A stretch of 64,000 nt of DNA. Origin: Alkalispirochaeta sp. (lineage in GTDB: Bacteria > Spirochaetota > Spirochaetia > DSM-27196 > Alkalispirochaetaceae). A model generated the notes under the pieces. That model searched no databases. It was not told where the DNA came from and saw nothing but the letters and a program-made list of their open reading frames with translations. The translations under genes and the position numbers were made by a program. The stretch is from positions 32,001 to 96,000 of the forward strand of contig CBDESZ010000026.1 of assembly GCA_965242725.1 (NCBI GenBank). The letters run 5' to 3'. Within the stretch, counting starts at the first letter, position 1. Every line of letters starts with the position of its first letter. This document shows, in pieces, positions 42,477-53,117 of the stretch.

Positions 42477-43211
42477 TCAATCTGAAGTGCTCTTTCGGCG
42501 TCTACTCGCTCCTTTTAGTTCAAATATCCATGGTGTATGGGCAAGGCGATCCATGATCGCGTCGGCGATAGTTGGCTCTCCGATGATTTCGTGCCACGCG
42601 CCAATCGGCACCTGGCCGGTGATGATCGTACCGGCTTTGTTATACCGGTCGTCGAGTATCTCGAGAAGGGAGAGGCGGTCATCGGCGTTCAACGGGCTGA
42701 GTCCGAAGTCGTCGATGATGAGTAATCCGGTTTTGGCAAATCGCCTGATCTCGTCGAAGTAGCTCCCGTCGGCGCGCGCAAGCCGGAGCGTCGGAAACAA
42801 TTTGGTTGCCCGCACGTAGCGCGTAGATATCCCCCGGAGACACGCTTCATGACCGAAAGCACAAGCGAGGTAGCTTTTCCCGGCGCCGGTCGGTCCGGTA
42901 ATGAGCATGGTCTCGCCACGCTCAACCCATTCCATTGTGGAGAGATTGCTCACGGTATCCCGGTCGAGATTGCGTTCCGGGCTGAACTCAATGGCATCGA
43001 TCGCCGCGGGGATACGTAGACCGGCCTGACGGAGCAGCCGTTCGGTCTTTCGTGTTTTTCTGAGATTCAATTCCGCCTCGGCCATCTGGGCAACGAGCTC
43101 ACCGGTGGTCGGGGCACTATTCGGCCCAAGACGGGCCGAGGCTTCGTATACGTCGGCCATTGCAGAAAGTTTCAGCGTCCGCAGCGTTTCAACGGTTTGT
43201 AGACGGTTCAT
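42477..43211 (-). CDS. istB: IS21 helper ATPase
   Basis: GPTGAGKS, LIIDDFG, ADAIMDRL. Confidence 0.95.
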   Translation of the reverse strand: MNRLQTVETLRTLKLSAMADVYEASARLGPNSAPTTGELVAQMAEAELNLRKTRKTERLLRQAGLRIPAAIDAIEFSPERNLDRDTVSNLSTMEWVERGETMLITGPTGAGKSYLACAFGHEACLRGISTRYVRATKLFPTLRLARADGSYFDEIRRFAKTGLLIIDDFGLSPLNADDRLSLLEILDDRYNKAGTIITGQVPIGAWHEIIGEPTIADAIMDRLAHTPWIFELKGASRRRKSTSD

Positions 43212-44797
43212 ACGTGCACTCCGTGGCGTTGGTAGGAGGCACGACCGCGAATATTGCTGTGAGGAGGAATTGAGCGGTCTGATTCGTCGGGTTCACCTGC
43301 CGATGTATCGAGTCCACGCTCAAGAATCCGTTTTAGATTCTTATAGGTCGGTACGCCGATCGTATTAGCGAAGCGACACGCCGCCTCGAGACGAGTGCGA
43401 GAATACGTCTTGGGAAGATTGAGGATACCCAGGCAGCTTTTGAATGCCTGTTGCGGCACCTCCCGGGCATCGAGCACCGCCTGAATGCACCGTTCTGTTT
43501 CCGGCCCGATATCCGCCGCCCACGAAAGGAGCCTGTCCGGACCCAACTCGTCGTGGAAGCGGTGTTCCGGTGTCATATGGTCGCGATTGGTCGTGTACTG
43601 ATGCGCTCCCGTTTCGCGACGGTGAAATGCGATCCTCACGTTCTTGTGGTAAATCTCTATCTCTCGGTGGGTATAGGAGATACGCACTTTCAGTCCGCGA
43701 TAATCGGCAGGAACGCTATAGTAGTGTTTATCCACCGGGAAGAAGACGTGGTAATTCTTTTGCACGGTGATCGGGCTGGTATAGAGCCGGACCTCATATG
43801 GTTCGGCAGGCAACGGACGAAGGCACTCCTTCTCGATCGCATCAAACCGTTCTTTCCGGCTGATGCCGACTTTCTGCATCGCTCGATCATTCAGACCGTC
43901 CAGGTTCTCCCACATCGCCGTGTTCAACTCGTCAACGGTGGTAAACGTTCGGTTCCGCAGCGGTGCAAGAATGCGCGTGTAGACCAGTCGTACCGCAGCT
44001 TCCACCAACGCTTTATCTCTCGGTTTCTTGACGCGCGCCGGCACAACGGCGCATCCGTAGTAGTGGCTGAAGACATCAAACGAAAAATTGATTCCCGGCT
44101 CGTATCGACTTGGTGTATCCACCGCCGCTTTCAGATTGTCGGGGACGAGGATTTTGGGAGCGCCTCCGGCATATTCCATCGCGTGGGTGGTGCAGCGAAT
44201 GGTGTGTTCGGTGTCCTGCGATATCGTCGCCTCGGTGTAAATCAATCCGCCTGAGGGAAACACCGCCACATACAGTTCCACAGGGATATGAATCCCCGTT
44301 TTCGGATCGACGATGAACGGACGGTCTCCGGCATAGTCGAGAAACATCTTTTCCCCCGGCTCGTGATGGAGGTGCATCGATAGTTCCGAGTCCTCCGTGT
44401 ACATCCGCATGTGCTGACAGAACTGGGAATACTGATACCCCTCGGGGTGCTCGGCGATGTATTCTTCCCACAAAATCTGTCGGGTCACCACGCCCATACG
44501 GTCGCGGCGTCGCCCCAGCTCGTTGACCATTCCCGGCATCAGATTCATCAGAACTTCGTATCGTGGATCATGACGCCGTGTTTCGCTATCCCGCAAACGC
44601 TCGAGCAACTCATCGTCGCTCATCGTCTCCACATCCGCCCATTTCAGTCCGGCATTTTCTGCCTGTTTGAGATACTCCGTCACCACCGGCCGGGATACGG
44701 CCAGTGCGCGGCTGATCTTCCGGATGGATAATCCGGAAGACTCGTTCAACCGAATGATTTCTCGTATTTTACTCATGCTGATCCTCGCTTTCGGCAT
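43208..44797 (-). CDS. istA: IS21 transposase
   Basis: MFLDYAG, VPDNLK, PRDKALVE, YYSVP; SD GAGGAGG. Confidence 0.95.
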   Translation of the reverse strand: MPKARISMSKIREIIRLNESSGLSIRKISRALAVSRPVVTEYLKQAENAGLKWADVETMSDDELLERLRDSETRRHDPRYEVLMNLMPGMVNELGRRRDRMGVVTRQILWEEYIAEHPEGYQYSQFCQHMRMYTEDSELSMHLHHEPGEKMFLDYAGDRPFIVDPKTGIHIPVELYVAVFPSGGLIYTEATISQDTEHTIRCTTHAMEYAGGAPKILVPDNLKAAVDTPSRYEPGINFSFDVFSHYYGCAVVPARVKKPRDKALVEAAVRLVYTRILAPLRNRTFTTVDELNTAMWENLDGLNDRAMQKVGISRKERFDAIEKECLRPLPAEPYEVRLYTSPITVQKNYHVFFPVDKHYYSVPADYRGLKVRISYTHREIEIYHKNVRIAFHRRETGAHQYTTNRDHMTPEHRFHDELGPDRLLSWAADIGPETERCIQAVLDAREVPQQAFKSCLGILNLPKTYSRTRLEAACRFANTIGVPTYKNLKRILERGLDTSAGEPDESDRSIPPHSNIRGRASYQRHGVHV

Positions 44798-45242
44798 TCG
44801 GTTCCTCCTCATCAATCACGATGACGAGATCCAACGTTTCTTGCGAGGATGCAAATCTCCATTCCGATACAAACCTGCCACCCGTTACGATGACCGCCGA
44901 AAATTGGCAGGTTTACGTCGGAATACCCGGCAGGTTTAGCCCGGAATGGGTGGCAGGTTTAAATCGTAACAGCCGGCAGGTTCGGGGCGTAATTTCCAGT
45001 TTCGAGGTAGGGGAGGGGGATGCGCTTGTCCATCGCGTCATAGCGACGTCGCTGATGGTCGAGTCGTCGTGCAAAATTGGGTCGTTCCGTATCGTAGCCG
45101 AGGGCTCTCCCGATCGTTCGACGTGCATCAGGTCCGGTAAAACTTTTACTTTTCCAGGCGACATATCGTTTGGTATAGAAAAACCGTTCGTATCCCGGCG
45201 TCCGATTGTCTTTCGGTACAAAGGTGTCAAAGAAGTTCGCCT

Positions 45243-45700: not shown

Positions 45701-46693
45701 CTACCGGTACCGCCCCGCCGTCTCCTGAAAACACTTCTTTGCCCGCTCCCGAAGTTCCGGCGGCTCCAGGACTTCCGCATTGGGACCCCACTGGGAGACC
45801 CAGAAAAGCACCTGCGACTGCTGGTTGGTGCGGAAACGGACGATAATGCCGCCGTCGGGGAGGCGTTCCACTTTCTGATCGTGGTGCCAGCGTCGCTCGG
45901 GGATTTTGGTGGCCGCCTCGCCGTCAAACCTGACGGCGATATCCACGGCGCCCTCGTTGACGAAGACGCCGAATGACGGGTCGATGTAGCTTTCCACAGA
46001 GAACCCGTCGGGACGGGTGAAGGTCTCCTTGCGAAGACGGGCTTGTTTGATCCGGTAGAGGGCGTAGATCCGTACCTCCTCGTGGTGGTGGGACCAGCAC
46101 AGCAGGTACCATTCACCGCGATGACCGACGAGATGCAGGGGATCAATGACGCGGATCGCCGTCTTGTCGTGCGCCGGTGCCTGGTAGTGGATTGCGATGG
46201 TGCGCTGTTTGTAGAGACCCTCCCGGACGACCGACCACACCTTCTTGTCGATCCCGGTGACGGGGTCGGAAATCACCGAGACGTGGGCGACGAGATCCTC
46301 GGAGCTGACGGTGACGTTGTCCGGAAGGAGGGTAGCGAGGCGCTTGTAGACGGACCTGAGTTGTTCATACCAGGGGCTGTTGCGATAGCCTTCCAGGGCG
46401 CGGTCGCCAACCATCAATGCCATCAGATCGCCCTCGGTGAGGTCCAGCGCCGGCAACTGCCAGGACATATCGCCGTAGTAGAAGCCTTTTTGGTGCCTGT
46501 CGAACTCAATGGGGGCGCCCCGGTCCCTCATCTTCTCGATGTCCCGCTGGATGGTACGGGTGGTGACCTCTTCAATGTTTTCATCGGACAGACCGCGAAC
46601 GATGTCCGCAGCGGAAGGGTAGTCCCGTTTGTTCCGAAGGCGTCCGTCGATATAGGCGATTCTGGTGGTGATGGCGCGGTAGCTCATAGGCAT
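45701..46693 (-). CDS. WYL-domain transcriptional regulator (wHTH-WYL-WCX)
   Basis: TRTIQRDIEKMR HTH, IDPLHL..WYL, EVLEPPELRE. Confidence 0.93.
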   Translation of the reverse strand: MPMSYRAITTRIAYIDGRLRNKRDYPSAADIVRGLSDENIEEVTTRTIQRDIEKMRDRGAPIEFDRHQKGFYYGDMSWQLPALDLTEGDLMALMVGDRALEGYRNSPWYEQLRSVYKRLATLLPDNVTVSSEDLVAHVSVISDPVTGIDKKVWSVVREGLYKQRTIAIHYQAPAHDKTAIRVIDPLHLVGHRGEWYLLCWSHHHEEVRIYALYRIKQARLRKETFTRPDGFSVESYIDPSFGVFVNEGAVDIAVRFDGEAATKIPERRWHHDQKVERLPDGGIIVRFRTNQQSQVLFWVSQWGPNAEVLEPPELRERAKKCFQETAGRYR

Positions 46694-46763
46694 AGTGTTG
46701 AATATTTGAGCATCATTTTCAAATATCTATAGTATTAGGCGGTCTGGACGGATATCTTGCGTC

Positions 46764-47162
46764 TCAGCCGGATCCGCGCAGCACTTCCAGAAAAACGCGT
46801 GGCGACACTACGAGCTTTTCGGGAGGAAAGTGTTTGTCGTTTCCCGTGACGAGATAATCGGCACCGCCCGAAATCGCCACCTCGTAGAATGGGATGTCGT
46901 CGGAATCAGGAACCACTTCCTTGGCGGGCGCGGCGGTAATGTAGGTGCTGTCGTATTCCAGGTACTCCAGGAGTGACTGGATGTAATCAACGGGAAAGTG
47001 AAACTTCGGACGTAGAAGAACTTTTCGATATTCGGATAGAATTCGATCGTCGACAAGGACGGTCACCGACTTGTTGAGTACGGCGTTGAGAATCGAGCCG
47101 GGTGCTCCATGTGGATTCAGAACTCCGGAAATCAGAACGTTGGTATCGAGAACAATGCGCAC
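46764..47162 (-). CDS. PIN-family putative toxin
   Basis: IVLDTNVLIS, DSDD, LVTGNDKHF. Confidence 0.88.
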   Translation of the reverse strand: MRIVLDTNVLISGVLNPHGAPGSILNAVLNKSVTVLVDDRILSEYRKVLLRPKFHFPVDYIQSLLEYLEYDSTYITAAPAKEVVPDSDDIPFYEVAISGGADYLVTGNDKHFPPEKLVVSPRVFLEVLRGSG

Positions 47163-47446
47163 TAGGAACGCTCACGACGAACCGCGTCGATTTCGGCCTG
47201 TATCTCCGCTTCGGTCATTGTATCGAGCCCGTTCTCTTGGGCGGTTTTCCGCAACTGACGAAGCGCATTTGCCGCTCGGGCGCTGCGAACTGCAGACAGC
47301 GTTTCTTCAAGTGTCTCCCCTGAAAGTGGAGTGAGCAATGCGATCGGCTTTCCGTTGTTTGTGATCACCATCTCCTGCTCCGTCGGAAGCTGTTTCCAGA
47401 TTGCCGCCGGAGAGGTTCGGATGTCACGGACGGTGATGAACTTCAT
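47162..47446 (-). CDS. Phd/YefM-like antitoxin
   Basis: ITVRDIR, VITNNGKPIALL; coupled to the PIN gene. Confidence 0.85.
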   Translation of the reverse strand: MKFITVRDIRTSPAAIWKQLPTEQEMVITNNGKPIALLTPLSGETLEETLSAVRSARAANALRQLRKTAQENGLDTMTEAEIQAEIDAVRRERS

Positions 47447-47501
47447 GTCTTTATAATCATTCTATTGTCACTTGATTGTCAACGATTCTTGTGCTCATAC
47501 G

Positions 47502-49814
47502 TTAAAACCCAATCCCCCGCGTCCGGTCCCGGCTCCGGGCGTTTGACAGGATCTCTCCAACGACGACGGCAGCCTGCACCGGGACTGCCGGCTCCTCCGT
47601 CAATGGCGTCTCGTCCCTCCCAATCTCCAGCATCTCCGCGGCCGTGGCGAGGTCGCTCATCATGAGGGGAGGCCCCTGCCCGAGGGCGGCGATATCGCCG
47701 TCGGTAAAGGTGACATCCGGAAAGATGTAGGCCAGTGCCGGGCGCAGCACATCTTCGTCGATGGCACCGAAGGTGACGTGCTTGTGGAATCGTCTGCGGA
47801 GGGCGGGGTCCACGGCGTCCACCCGGTTGGTGCAGGCGATGAGGATTCCGCTATACTCCTGGATCTACTGGAGGAACTCGGCGATTTGGGAGTGCTCCCA
47901 GGAGCGATGGGCGATGGACCGATCGTAGAGGAGGGCGTCTGCCTCGTCGATGATAAGGACCGAGCCGGCACGGGCGGCGGTGCGGAATGCCGCTGCGATC
48001 TGCTCTTCCGACTCTCCCACATATTTTGAGAGCAGGTCCGACGGGCGCTTGAGCAGGACGTCCCGGCCCAGGCGCTTTGCGAGCCACAGGGCGTACTGCG
48101 TCTTGCCGCCGCCGGGAGGCCCGCCAAAAAGGAGGCGCAATCCCTGTCCGGCCTGCGCGCGATGCGACGCCTGGCGTTCAACTCGATCCAGAGATTCCGA
48201 AGTGGAACAGAATCGGGGGTCGAAGGAGCGGGCGACCGTCGGCAGGCGGCGGACGTCACGGGCGAGGGCGCCGGTGGAGATCCGGTCGATGTAGCCGGAG
48301 ACGCGCCGGTGTACGTCGGCGGGACTGAGGTGCCCGGTGTTCAGTTCCGCGGCGATGATCCGGGCGGTACGGTCGATGGCGGCAGGGGTGATGTCGTATC
48401 GTGCGGCGATGTCGTGGAGCAAGGGGGCGATCCCGGCCGGATCGTGAACGAGGGGTGAGAGGCGTTCCGTGAGCATCCGGACTCTCGTGTCGATGGCGGG
48501 GCGGGGAAAGGCGAGGACGTGACCGAAGCGGCGCATGGCGGAGGTGGGAATCATGCGGTGGTCGTTGGTGATCCAGACGGTGGCCACCGGAAGGTGCTCG
48601 AGCAGGTCGTTGAGGACTCCCTTGTCGTAGCTCCCGCCGTCCAGACCGCCCCCCAAGAGGCCGAAGAAGGCGGCGGCGCTCTGGAGAATGGAGTCGGCTT
48701 CATCGATGATGAGGACGTCCGTGGCGGGGGAAAGCAGATTGGCTGCCATTCGGATTGCATTGAAGCGGCTCCCTTCCGCTTCGGCGCGACGTGGTCCATG
48801 GGAGTATTCGGACCGGCGGTTTTGCGCCGCGAGGGTGTGACCGGTGAGACCGAGGGAGTGGATGAGAGCGCGGGCAAACTCGGTCTTGCCGATCCCCGGC
48901 TCTCCGGCGATAAGCAGGGGGTAGACGCCGCGGACCGCTGCGGCGCAGGTGCGTATTTCGTCGGCGGGCAGCGGGAACTCGTCGAGCGGGAACCGCGGGG
49001 AGGGTGTGTCGTCAAAGAGCCCGGCCGTGAGGTCATCGAGGGTGTCGGATCGGAGTGCGAAAAGAAGGGGACGGCTGACGTTGATATCGAAAATTTCGTC
49101 GCGACCGCCCCGGAAGGCGATGAGACCGAGACGCTCCAGGGGGGAACCGGGGGCGGTCTCCCGGACAAAGGCGGGAACGTCGGTGTCGGCGGCGTCTGCA
49201 ATGATCGACATCTGGGTGCGATGGGTTGCCTGATGCATGAGGCCGGCCATCGGTTCGATATCCTCGAGGGTGTACAGTGCCATGAGAATCCGGATGTCGA
49301 GGGGCGACAGGGTGAAGATGCGGGCAATCTCTTCGACGATCGGCGGGAAGGGAGGGAAGGGCGGGACGGACTCCGCGCCGGCGCTGCTTTCTTTTGCGTC
49401 TATGTCGTCTTTGTTGTCGGCGTGGTCGTTCCGGTCGACCTGGTAGACCAGGTCGGCGATGAGATCCACGACGATGGGGTGGATCGTCTCGTTGTTGCGA
49501 CCGATGCGGTAACAGATTTGCCGCAGGCGGCGCGGGGACGCGTGCGGGGCCTCCAACTCGCTGACCGCGTCCGGCGGCAGTCTGAGGAGTTCTTTCTGCT
49601 CCAGTATGCGGGCGATGAGGGTGTGAAGTTCTTCCGGCTCGGAAACCGTAAGGGCAAACTGGACGAGGTCGTCCGATGGCGAGAGGTGTTCAGCGCATAT
49701 GCGAAAGACGTAGCGGTGGTACGCCTTCCAGTGCGTGTCTATCGGTCTCTGAAGGCGTGAGCGGCCTCCGCGCTTCCGGGTGAGGTGTTCATGGTGTCGT
49801 TGTTGTGGCGTCAT
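47502..49814 (-). CDS. double-AAA+ ATPase with an in-frame TAG at 47865-47867
   Basis: GEPGIGKT/LIIDEAD and GPPGGGKT/LIIDEAD; frame continues past the TAG as IQEYSGILIACTN..DPALRRRF..GIGF. Confidence 0.88.
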
Positions 49815-49821
49815 GTACAGG

Positions 49822-49855
49822 AAGGTAGCCGGTGGTCCGCGACTTAGAGTGTCGC
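49822..49855 (-). promoter_or_regulatory. candidate WYL-activator site plus -10 box (AAA gene)
   Basis: coding strand GCGACACTCTAAGTCGC-N11-TACCTT-N7-ATG. Confidence 0.7.
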
Positions 49856-49939
49856 CGGGACTGACTGTTACGTTTTTTGCAAAAGACCACGTTTCTGCCG
49901 GGTTGCACGTTGACTGGTTTGGGCCCGCCCACTTCGCCG

Positions 49940-50464
49940 TTACCGCCCGCCCGACGGTCCTCGCTTCAGAAACTCCCGCTGCGCCGGCGTCTCGGGAAGA
50001 GAGCCGACCCCCGCGATCTCCCGCGAGGCGACCGGGTAATCATAGCCGAGGGACATGAGGACGGCGACGGCAAACATTCCCGTCCGGCCGATGCCGGCGG
50101 CGCAGTGAATGAAGACCCGCTCTCCGTTGTCGATCAGCTCCGCAACGTGACGGGCGGTATTCCAGAAGCGCCCCGCAGCGAAGAGGGCGGGCGCCTGGAG
50201 GTCGTCTATCGGGAGGTCTATCAGCGTGACCCGGCTCTTCCCGGTACCGTCCGCCTGACGGTGCCGGCGCCGTTCCCGCCACACCCGGTACTGCGGACTC
50301 TCTGCCGCGATCTGCTCTTCCGGTGCGAGGCAGACCACCGTACCGATGCGGTGCTCCTCCATCTCACGGAGCCACCGGGAAAAATTTCCCGCGAGGCGCC
50401 CCGCAAATTTGCGCCCGGGCATCGCGTCCAGATACAGCCTGTTTTTCCACGTTCTCATGCTCAT
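49940..50464 (-). CDS. PTP/dual-specificity phosphatase-fold protein
   Basis: HCAAGIGRTG CX5R loop, LPIDDLQAP, PETPAQ. Confidence 0.88.
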   Translation of the reverse strand: MSMRTWKNRLYLDAMPGRKFAGRLAGNFSRWLREMEEHRIGTVVCLAPEEQIAAESPQYRVWRERRRHRQADGTGKSRVTLIDLPIDDLQAPALFAAGRFWNTARHVAELIDNGERVFIHCAAGIGRTGMFAVAVLMSLGYDYPVASREIAGVGSLPETPAQREFLKRGPSGGR

Positions 50465-50471
50465 GCTATGG

Positions 50472-50507
50472 ATACTATTGTACCGTGGGCGACAGGGAGT
50501 GTCGTAT
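50472..50507 (-). promoter_or_regulatory. candidate WYL-activator site plus -10 box (phosphatase gene)
   Basis: coding strand ATACGACACTCCCTGTCGC-N11-TAGTAT-N7-ATG. Confidence 0.7.
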
Positions 50508-50618
50508 GTTCGAGGCACGCCACGATACCGTTTTACCAATGCAAAACATATTAGTTGTTTTCTGGTGCATAGAGGATAATATAATATATGTGGGCATATA
50601 ATTATAATGGAGGCGACG

Positions 50619-50849
50619 ATGGCACAGGTGACGATTTATCTTGATGAAGCTCATGAAAGGCGGCTTCGGAAGGCGGCGGAGGATGCGGGGATGCCGGTGA
50701 GCCGGTGGGTTGCGGCTCTCATTGAACGGTATACTCGGACCGAGTGGCCTGCTGAAGTGCGTGACGCCGCCGGATCGTGGCCGGATGCCCCTGATGCAGT
50801 ATCATTGCGAAATCCGTCCGGCCGGGATGTGCCGAGAGAGTCGCTATGA
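50619..50849 (+). CDS. CopG/RHH-type VapB-like antitoxin
   Basis: MAQVTIYLD..SRWV..AGSWPD; overlaps the VapC start. Confidence 0.8.
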   Translation: MAQVTIYLDEAHERRLRKAAEDAGMPVSRWVAALIERYTRTEWPAEVRDAAGSWPDAPDAVSLRNPSGRDVPRESL

Positions 50850-51250
50850 CCTACGTTCTCGATACCAATACGCTCATATATTTTTTCAAGGGCCAGGGCG
50901 GCGTGGCGGATACGCTCCTGAGTACTCCGCCTGCGGAGGTTGCAGTGCCGGCAATCGTGGTGTACGAGTTGGAGACGGGAATCCGTAAGTCGTCACACCC
51001 GGAGAAGCGGACGCGGCAATTAAGCTCCCTTCTCGATGCCGCCCGGGTGCTGCCGTTTGATAGGGCGTGCGCGACCGAGGCGGCGCGGGTGCGGGCGGAG
51101 CTCGAGGCATCCGGAACACCGGTCGGTCCCGTGGACGTACTCATTGCCGGTACGGTGATAGCCTGTGACGGCGTACTGGTTACCCACAATGCGGACGAGT
51201 TTAGACGAATCTCCGGATTGCGCATCGTCGATTGGTACCGAATGACCTGA
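50846..51250 (+). CDS. vapC: VapC PIN toxin
   Basis: LDTNT, YEL, GPVDVLIA, LVTHNADEF. Confidence 0.9.
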   Translation: MTYVLDTNTLIYFFKGQGGVADTLLSTPPAEVAVPAIVVYELETGIRKSSHPEKRTRQLSSLLDAARVLPFDRACATEAARVRAELEASGTPVGPVDVLIAGTVIACDGVLVTHNADEFRRISGLRIVDWYRMT

Positions 51251-52300: not shown

Positions 52301-52657
52301 ATGGATGCGAGGGAGACGTTGCGGCAGTTTTACCGGGACCGGGCGACCCGGAAGCGGGAGGATGTCCGGGAACGACGGGAGCGATTTGAGGCGCTTCTTC
52401 CGCATATTGTTGACGGTATTCTGGAACGCGACCCGGAGGTCTCCCGGATCATCCTCTTTGGATCCCTTGCGGAACGGAACGAAGGCGTCGTCAGGGATAT
52501 CGATATCGCCGTCGAAAGCACCGACTTTCTCAAGGTGAGCGGGTGGCTCTTGAGTCTGTCTGAACCTGTTGATGTCGTCGACTTGAACGATCTCTATCCC
52601 CATATCCGGGAGCGGGCGGAATCGAAGGGCAGGGTCCTGTATGAACGACGAGACTGA
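52301..52657 (+). CDS. minimal nucleotidyltransferase (MNT) antitoxin
   Basis: LFGSLA..DIDIAV, VDVVDL. Confidence 0.85.
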   Translation: MDARETLRQFYRDRATRKREDVRERRERFEALLPHIVDGILERDPEVSRIILFGSLAERNEGVVRDIDIAVESTDFLKVSGWLLSLSEPVDVVDLNDLYPHIRERAESKGRVLYERRD

Positions 52658-53117
52658 TCGCGCACTGCTGATAGCGGAGCTGGAAGGTGATCTGGCGGCG
52701 CTTCCGGAACTCCTGGCGAGCAATCACAAAAGTATGGAGCGAATCGGTGCGGGAGCAACGGACGATCTGGATTATGCAGCTCTCGGATACACTCTTCATA
52801 ATCTGTACAACCTGATCGAAAATTCCTTTTTTCGTATAGCAAAGCATTTTGAAAATGAACTCGGCAGTGAAGGATGGCACAAGGAGCTTCTGCATCGGAT
52901 GACCCTTTTCATCGAGGGAATCCGCCCGCGGGTAATCGACCGGCCGACGGCGGAACAGATTGATGAACTGAGAGCCTTTCGCTACGTTTTTCGGAATATG
53001 TATCGAAAAAGCCTTGATCCGGAGAAGCTGCTCCTCCTTCAGAAACGGCTGCCGGATATCGTGGATGCCTGGAGACGGGCAATACAGGATTTCATTGACC
53101 TCCTGAAGACCCTTTGA
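52641..53117 (+). CDS. HEPN (HepT-like) protein
   Basis: LHNLYN..E, WHKELL, LRAFRYVFRNMY; overlaps the MNT gene. Confidence 0.8.
   Translation: MNDETDRALLIAELEGDLAALPELLASNHKSMERIGAGATDDLDYAALGYTLHNLYNLIENSFFRIAKHFENELGSEGWHKELLHRMTLFIEGIRPRVIDRPTAEQIDELRAFRYVFRNMYRKSLDPEKLLLLQKRLPDIVDAWRRAIQDFIDLLKTL

Follow-up and report, generated by a model that had tools for sequence, protein, structure and literature searches.

The window analysed here is a stretch of 64,000 nucleotides from Alkalispirochaeta sp. (assembly GCA_965242725.1, contig CBDESZ010000026.1, positions 32,001 to 96,000 of the forward strand), and three neighbouring genes in it are considered, which encode a regulator with winged helix-turn-helix (wHTH), WYL and WCX domains, a double-AAA ATPase and a PTP/DSP-fold phosphatase. 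The WYL protein is probably (roughly 75%) an activator of the DdaA/DriD type that responds to single-stranded nucleic acid and controls a local regulon built of separate cassettes. The main features are listed below.

45701..46693, minus strand: wHTH-WYL-WCX regulator of 330 aa when read from the first ATG, the second Met being the start in homologues
47868..49814, minus strand: Cdc48/p97-like double-AAA ATPase, cut short at 649 aa, with a helical, winged-helix-like N-terminal region
47865..47867, minus strand: premature TAG, codon 650, in AAA domain 2, seen in the sequence and in contigs of four runs
47502..47864, minus strand: ATPase frame beyond the stop, with sensor-1, arginine finger, small subdomain and IGF tail
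49854-49840, minus strand: ATPase-promoter dyad CGACACTCTAAGTCG, CGACA-N5-AGTCG, predicted WYL site at about -40 to -26
49827-49822, minus strand: ATPase -10 box TACCTT, 12 nt 3' of the dyad and 7 nt before the ATG at 49814
49940..50464, minus strand: Cys-dependent PTP/DSP-fold phosphatase, 174 aa, with an intact HCxxGxGRTG loop, single copy in the genome
50504-50490, minus strand: phosphatase-promoter dyad CGACACTCCCTGTCG, a perfect CGACA-N5-TGTCG read from the sequence
50477-50472, minus strand: phosphatase -10 box TAGTAT, 12 nt 3' of the dyad and 7 nt before the ATG at 50464

Two promoters in the window share one layout

Both promoters read CGACA-N5-(T/A)GTCG-N12-TAnnnT-N7-ATG. A preliminary description of this DNA had reported two 16-mers identical at 13 of 16 positions, 25 nt between the dyad end and the ATG in both genes, and a TAnnnT box followed by 7 nt and ATG, and all three statements hold on the minus strand. 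The dyad coordinates given there (49839-49855 and 50489-50507) were off by 1-3 nt, and the spacer of 11 nt is right when counted from the C after GTCG, but is 12 nt from GTCG itself. The ATPase dyad has one mismatch to the consensus, at position 11, where T is found in 16 of 17 aligned promoters and the sole non-T is the window copy. An ATA precedes the phosphatase dyad, matching the DriD consensus ATACGAC (PMC13004042). The alternative phosphatase box TACAAT, also described before, does exist (ACGACA-17-TACAAT, 9/12) but is not conserved, and it was rejected as the -10 element, with no TAnnnT at its position in 9 of 9 phosphatase orthologue promoters read by eye.

The proposed scan for CGAC-N7-GTCG-N12-TAnnnT returned just the two window sites with a start in the window's genome. 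Among 416 CGAC-N7-GTCG dyads in 4.34 Mb, two are followed by N12-TAnnnT-N5-9-start, and both lie in the window, 650 bp apart, while the number of full sites expected by chance is 0.083 (dyad and box taken as independent, and the box followed by ATG at 6-7 nt). In a matrix scan of the same genome the window sites rank 1 and 3, and rank 2 (C7:48968) lies inside an efflux-type gene; no further intergenic site was recognised, hits other than ranks 1-3 not being followed up. The dyad site is not present before recA or lexA. The regulon of the window's genome appears to consist of the two window genes, and its independence of SOS is plausible because lexA and recA exist there but lack the site.

Conservation of the site across the order

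In a survey of 84 genomes of the order, orthologues were chosen by protein match and their 5' regions were then scored. The motif is conserved upstream of homologues of both genes. For the ATPase, dyad, -10 box and an in-frame start at 6-7 nt occur together in 14 of 19 scorable 5' regions (9 loci without a usable or aligned 5' end and 4 duplicates were left out), and the five misses comprise two sites beyond the scored stretch (L186, L200), one site at N11, one gene behind a site-bearing gene and one without any site. For the phosphatase the site is found in 11 of 17 orthologues, six of them leaderless, with 3 unscorable loci and 1 duplicate left out. No site stands before the WYL genes of the clade (0 of 28 upstream regions). 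An earlier count of mixed ascertainment gave 14/18 for the ATPase, 8/17 for the phosphatase and 0/28 for the WYL genes.

Across 17 aligned ATPase promoters, some of which were found via the pattern itself, G2 A3 C4, G12 T13 C14 and the T-A-T of the -10 box are invariant and the spacers are variable. The pattern YGACA-N5-TGTCR-N12-TAnnnT has 59 matches in 30 of the 84 genomes, vs 7 for the reversed control (8-fold excess). Changing the spacer to N11 or N13 gives 21 and 20 matches (reversed control 7 each), an excess over the control that is partly due to genuine dyads meeting a box by chance; within the family the matches number 32 at N12, 6 at N11 and 4 at N13. Targets that have a leader carry a Shine-Dalgarno sequence 3' of the same predicted start. 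As far as sequence can tell, this is a fixed dyad-to-box distance with no -35 consensus, as in DdaA/DriD-type promoters.

The WYL regulator and its predicted site

Pfam places WYL and WCX above cut-off and an HTH match below it, and the wHTH, WYL and WCX architecture in one protein is seen by Pfam, the structure model and Foldseek together. With the model (predicted confidence pLDDT 77), Foldseek lists DriD first (E 8e-17), PafBC next, and then CapW/BrxR (E 7e-12 or weaker). By motif and fold match, not by a printed residue alignment, helix-3 residues R46/T47/Q49/R50 correspond to DriD R37/T38/E40/R41. In DriD, Arg37 and Arg41 read guanines (G2 and C4 positions) and Glu40 contacts C1 (PMC10853764). 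The base-reading arginines are kept in the clade (R48 in 55/55 and R/K44 in 54/55 sequences of alignment A1), and so are Y168, R179, Y194, R206 and R212 (A1 numbering) of a predicted ligand pocket, invariant in 55/55. The first Arg of the single-stranded DNA (ssDNA) loop is replaced by Ala (A211 in the window protein, A209 in A1, 55/55), aligned to DriD R207. The earlier claim of an activator promoter of DriD-like kind, with a leaderless start and no -35, is supported by conservation, spacing, synteny, fold and recognition-helix residues.

The position of DriD Glu40 holds Q, K or E across the clade, and the first base of the site shifts from C/T to G with Lys/Arg, so the ATPase promoters of K-type genomes read GGACA. 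Ten Q/E-only genomes hold 23 Y-sites and 0 R-sites, while fourteen K/R-type genomes hold 7 and 14; genomes with both types, Gly or a truncated gene (G009, G461, G023, G013, G010 and G444) were left out of this comparison. The covariation is consistent with the assignment of the WYL protein to the site and is no statistical proof of it.

A WYL match at E<=1e-60 is found in 30 of the 84 genomes, among them 17 of 22 that bear the ATPase and 14 of 17 that bear the phosphatase (related genomes, not independent). Of 30 ATPase loci, 14 include the WYL gene; among the 16 without it, 14 are stretches shorter than 7 kb. By the names of its homologues the clade belongs to free-living Spirochaetia, with close WYL homologues named in Spirochaeta africana and Alkalispirochaeta americana. 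Among 400 genomes sampled from the phylum there was one WYL match at E<=1e-90, itself in the same order, and the clade was not found in viral contigs. Of seven distant ATPase relatives examined on viral contigs, one (L244) lies beside a WYL gene and has a dyad whose -10 box is at N11. In that contig (L244:5203-8294) the distant ATPase relative is followed by a long WYL-WCX gene, and a CGTC-N7-GACG dyad with its -10 at N11 lies upstream. On the evidence of this contig, the ATPase-WYL pairing reaches beyond the window clade.

The WYL gene of the window has no full dyad in its own upstream stretch (46694-46725, minus strand), and its close relatives retain, a few bases upstream of the start, a half-site resembling TTGACA, which could possibly serve autoregulation or be a plain promoter element.

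The ATPase and the phosphatase

Full-length close relatives of the ATPase have about 710-800 aa and two intact AAA domains, but the window copy stops inside domain 2, the TAG lying after Walker B of this domain and before sensor-1 and the arginine finger. In 18 other copies the residue at this position is Gln (17) or Gly (1). No differing letter was found at the codon in contigs from four runs. In two runs the contigs extend over the full stretch, in a third the codon is well away from the contig ends, and in the fourth it is reached only close to an end; all four derive from a single sample at depth 2-3, and the assembly itself may have been built from them. Assembly error was rejected as the cause of the TAG on these contigs, and recoding was rejected on the finding that no CUA-anticodon tRNA reading TAG is present among the 48 tRNAs of the genome. 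We infer that the window ATPase is a recent pseudogene, and because of the nonsense codon the ATPase output of this genome is probably dead. The WYL gene had been placed about 0.8 kb downstream of the ATPase, which is right for the read-through end at 47502 but not otherwise, and a Phd-PIN pair lies in between.

The model of an intact ATPase orthologue (pLDDT 89.6) matches Cdc48/p97, VAT, Rix7 and Drg1, the profile match to VAT has E 8e-57, and Foldseek agrees on type II AAA+. Walker A/B motifs and arginine fingers are kept in both AAA domains of the orthologues, and domain 2 has a Y-V-G pore-loop motif. The first 270 aa are helical throughout apart from a short hairpin, and a winged-helix lead comes from PF22977, seen in 12% of one Atlas cluster; whole-model fold searches were filled by AAA matches and hardly probed this region. 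The intact ATPase is likely a substrate-threading unfoldase. Like Cdc48/p97/VAT, it has two tandem classic-clade AAA domains and the Y-V-G motif in domain 2, and it differs from them in its helical N-region instead of the p97 N domain and its IGF tail, the window copy also being cut short. It is weakly similar to the IetA and TRIP13 models. Against PADLOC and NCBIfam it gives generic partial AAA matches far below cut-off (IteA 58 vs 510 bits), with no partner gene, and it had no match in plasmids at E<=1e-25 and none in phages at E<=1e-15.

In the phosphatase, H120, C121, R127 and the upstream acid D88 are invariant in 35 of 35 sequences, as is the HCxxGxGRTG loop, and the protein matches archaeal PTPs in the PDB and the PTP-SAK and Tc-R-P families. 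It has no PADLOC match. In the defence check proposed earlier, neither protein has a family-level match, and partial matches to AAA domains are all that was returned. The probable substrate of the phosphatase is a phosphate carried by a protein or by a nucleotide or nucleic-acid end, and in the window's genome it, and not the ATPase, is likely the functional one. A phosphatase orthologue in genome G463 (L152:258-1556), behind a perfect site, is fused to about 260 residues of no known family.

Genes headed by the site in related genomes

The ATPase is found in 22 of the 84 genomes and the phosphatase in 17; both occur in 9, all three genes in 8, and the order of the ATPase and phosphatase genes varies. 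The claim of a dedicated ATPase and phosphatase module was not borne out by this co-occurrence, the two being shared by 9 of 84 genomes and the same promoter heading unrelated cargo.

The complete genome G028 has 8 exact sites vs 0 for the control, of which six lie within 70 kb (978-1046 kb) ending at the WYL-ATPase pair. In this block the site heads a DUF4236 gene, two unknown genes and the ATPase, as well as a cassette followed by an Mrr-type nuclease and a Schlafen-helicase gene and a DUF285 gene followed by a PD-(D/E)XK nuclease. The other two sites stand before membrane-protein/DUF6915 cassettes. Seven of the eight sites head island genes and one heads the ATPase. No global repair regulon (recA etc.) was seen in the scans of the window's genome. 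In G006 at least 7 sites lie within 12 kb. In G013 the site heads brxE, brxC and pglX, with brxHI farther along the contig. Other targets are SHOCT, NUDIX, DUF4240, DnaB_C-like and PrsW-family genes. The genes beyond the first in each cassette are presumably co-transcribed with it.

Several observations on these loci can be added. On contig C35 of G013 (L045, L083 and L071), the BREX-type operon begins 26 nt after a perfect site, WYL and ATPase remnants lie on the same contig, and a PARG macro-domain gene is near the operon. PrsW-family intramembrane protease genes stand behind GGACA-type sites in several genomes (L179, L198 and L201; L181 was not scanned). Locus L070 (G006:C14:1-20000) holds the Phd-PIN and vapBC pairs of the window together with many sites and two copies of WYL, one of them frameshifted, and one of its sites drives a 61-aa piece of ATPase domain 2, which suggests that cassettes are shuffled or deleted between promoter copies. 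A PD-(D/E)XK nuclease and UvrD helicase pair, AddAB-like by domains, recurs by the WYL genes of the clade or by sites (L066, L073 and L146).

Comparison with known systems

The promoter had been described as DriD/PafBC-like. The DriD likeness stands, but the DdaA site, CGWCA-N5-TGWCG (PMC12392091), is closer still and the palindrome is unlike PafBC. DdaA of Acinetobacter/Moraxellaceae shares with the window protein the wHTH-WYL-WCX architecture, the two helix-3 arginines, the replacement of the first ssDNA-loop Arg by Ala and a matching site (PMC12392091, PMC13010146), a likeness drawn from published features (site and residues). According to the DdaA study, the ancestral protein controlled an assortment of functionally uncharacterised genes close to where it is encoded, and DdaA targets include anti-phage systems (PMC12392091), as the site heads BREX in a spirochaete relative. 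Unlike DdaA, the spirochaete regulon lacks recA and lexA in the window's genome and its targets are island cassettes, with leaderless ATPase and phosphatase cargo and a K/R clade on GGACA.

DriD of Caulobacter crescentus is the top fold match and shares the CGAC-N7-GTCG dyad and the base-reading Arg pair (PMC9186387, PMC10853764, PMC13004042). At DriD promoters the site covers the -35 position, its distance to the -10 box is fixed and no -35 consensus is present (PMC13004042), and the spacer is 11-12 nt by our reading of printed promoter sequences, compared with 12 nt in the spirochaetes. The two proteins have about 19% identity, and DriD R207 is Ala in the window clade. DriD homologues have a site at their own promoter in 68 of 69 cases, in contrast to 0 of 28 here, and DriD targets recA, recJ, dnaG, didA and bapE, whereas the window site is absent from recA.

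PafBC of mycobacteria shares the right half-site, TGTCR, which there too precedes TAnnnT with no -35 present (PMC6789036, PMC5656591), but is a heterodimer with a non-palindromic site (PMC6789036) and a large chromosomal repair regulon, whereas the window has one regulator gene and a palindrome. BrxR and CapW, of BREX and CBASS, are likewise WYL regulators in defence islands, and one relative's site heads a BREX operon; they are repressors with a weaker fold match, whereas the spirochaete geometry is activator-like and is repeated before many cassettes. The site of such repressors lies at their own promoter, which is the case for 0 of 28 genes of the window clade. Further literature includes SiwR (PMC10693628).

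Proposed mechanism and alternatives

In the mechanism that we propose, the two wHTH domains of a WYL homodimer would sit on YGACA-N5-TGTCR, which spans about -40 to -26 and stands in for a -35 box. The WYL/WCX pocket would take up single-stranded nucleic acid from DNA damage or phage attack, upon which sigma70 RNA polymerase would be recruited. Transcription would start 6-7 nt 3' of TAnnnT, so that the ATPase and phosphatase mRNAs would be leaderless. Every target would be a separate cassette with its own promoter copy, and the cargo could for this reason differ between genomes, from the p97-like unfoldase and PTP-fold phosphatase to BREX, nuclease cassettes and unknown proteins. Intact ATPases would probably act as double-ring unfoldases and take apart or remodel complexes of proteins, perhaps reaching DNA-bound ones via the winged-helix-like N-region.

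A number of points weigh against this mechanism. The site is missing from 6 of 17 phosphatase orthologues, and the WYL carriers G015, G016, G027, G448, G451 and G032 have no exact-pattern match (near-matches exist in G016 and G032). No WYL match at E<=1e-60 was found in five genomes with the ATPase and three with the phosphatase, which are fragmented assemblies. The helix-3 correspondence to DriD was drawn from motif and fold as described above, and the K/R-type WYLs form a single clade (93/93), so that the covariation amounts to about one evolutionary event and is overstated by the Fisher P values. DdaA sites lie about 50 bp upstream of the start (PMC12392091), compared with about -40 to -26 predicted here, and the mycobacterial P1 motif, TGTCR + 11 (PMC5656591), is one base shorter than N12. 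The window's genome has three other WYL genes, and YafY-type WYL genes elsewhere have the same promoter geometry, both of which are taken up below.

The ATPase and phosphatase might form a dedicated two-part anti-phage system under the WYL protein, which would be compatible with the proposed activator; we regard this as rather unlikely. All three genes are together in 6 merged loci and 8 of 84 genomes, the context is rich in toxin-antitoxin and defence genes, and the resemblance to the IetA and TRIP13 models, however weak, points the same way. On the other hand, the ATPase occurs alone of the two in 13 genomes and the phosphatase alone in 8, no phosphatase match was found in the complete genome G028, which carries WYL and ATPase, the promoters are separate and gene order is variable, the PADLOC/NCBIfam matches are generic AAA far below cut-off (IteA as above), and in the window an intact phosphatase stands beside a broken ATPase.

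It is improbable that the dyad is a repressor operator as for BrxR/CapW, with the WYL protein blocking the promoters until a signal releases it. The dyad does overlap the -35 position, some K-type relatives carry a site before their own gene (L189, L190), and one site heads the BREX operon of G013, BrxR being a WYL repressor described for BREX (PMC13004042). However, there is no -35 that polymerase alone could use at the conserved -10, strict spacing over dozens of promoters suits an activator, a WCX domain is present, the fold is nearer to DriD/PafBC than to CapW/BrxR, and the window clade lacks a site at its own gene (0/28).

We give similarly low credence to the possibility that the site is real but is read by another WYL protein or by several, the window WYL being linked merely by residence in the island. 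Among the four WYL genes of the genome, the YafY-type one at C4:161478 has an identical RTIQRD helix. YafY-type WYL genes in L092 (G014) and L110 (G472) are leaderless behind TGACA-N5-TGTCG-N12-TAnnnT, which suggests that related WYL clades use similar sites; in the dyads of G014 and G472 an N11 box is also found on the opposite side. Yet the ATPase, the phosphatase and the window-clade WYL remain neighbours through many rearrangements, and the outer site base tracks the helix residue of this very clade.

Finally, a chance or inherited look-alike without function is hardly credible, for although the window's genome alone shows no N12 excess (5 matrix matches at N12 vs 4-11 at other spacers), the motif positions alone are conserved among orthologues at 32-70% protein identity and the same design stands before unrelated genes with an 8-fold excess over the reversed control.

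Neighbourhood of the locus

The WYL, ATPase and phosphatase genes sit among Phd-PIN, VapBC and MntA/HepT-like pairs, near an IS21 element. Two of these pairs are as follows.

46764..47446, minus strand: Phd/YefM antitoxin and PIN_3 toxin pair, between ATPase and WYL, outside the regulon
50607..51250, plus strand: divergent vapB-like and vapC pair, context alone

The Phd-PIN pair has its own sigma70-like promoter (TTGACA-18-GATTAT, 47482-47453). The vapB-like/vapC pair is placed outside the regulon because no -10 box stands at the fixed spacing on the plus strand. The end of the WYL gene and an IS21-family element (IstA-like and IstB, 42477-44815, minus strand) are about 0.9 kb apart, and an MntA-like nucleotidyltransferase and HepT-like pair (52301-53117, plus strand) is a candidate type VII toxin-antitoxin.

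Novelty and meaning

For DdaA, this kind of regulator, its site and its control over defence genes have already been published (PMC12392091), and Supplementary Fig. 4B of that paper, on gene neighbourhoods, may bear on novelty. Literature searches at the level of listings, with most subscription papers outside reach, found no paper describing a spirochaete WYL regulon, p97-like and PTP cargo, or the switch from Q to K with C to G. Judged from sequence comparison, the locus is a spirochaete member of the DdaA/DriD-type local regulons that carries unstudied cargo, and the window holds a partly decayed copy of it.

A wider view is tentative, and we hold it to be possible at best. The dyad-N12-TAnnnT unit might be a portable plug that puts any island defence cassette on arrival (BREX, nucleases, p97-like unfoldase or phosphatase) under one ssDNA sensor, the leaderless ATPase and phosphatase might be undescribed anti-phage or damage-recovery effectors, and one helix residue (Q/E vs K/R) might set two versions of the switch that do not cross-talk.

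The locus offers a concrete case of what WYL activators would control as local island regulators, a question left open by the DdaA paper. Its promoter could serve as a tag in searches for defence candidates that are co-induced and as yet uncharacterised, it points to a bacterial p97-like ATPase family without an assigned function, and it predicts a one-residue specificity code (Q/E vs K/R) in this family of regulators.

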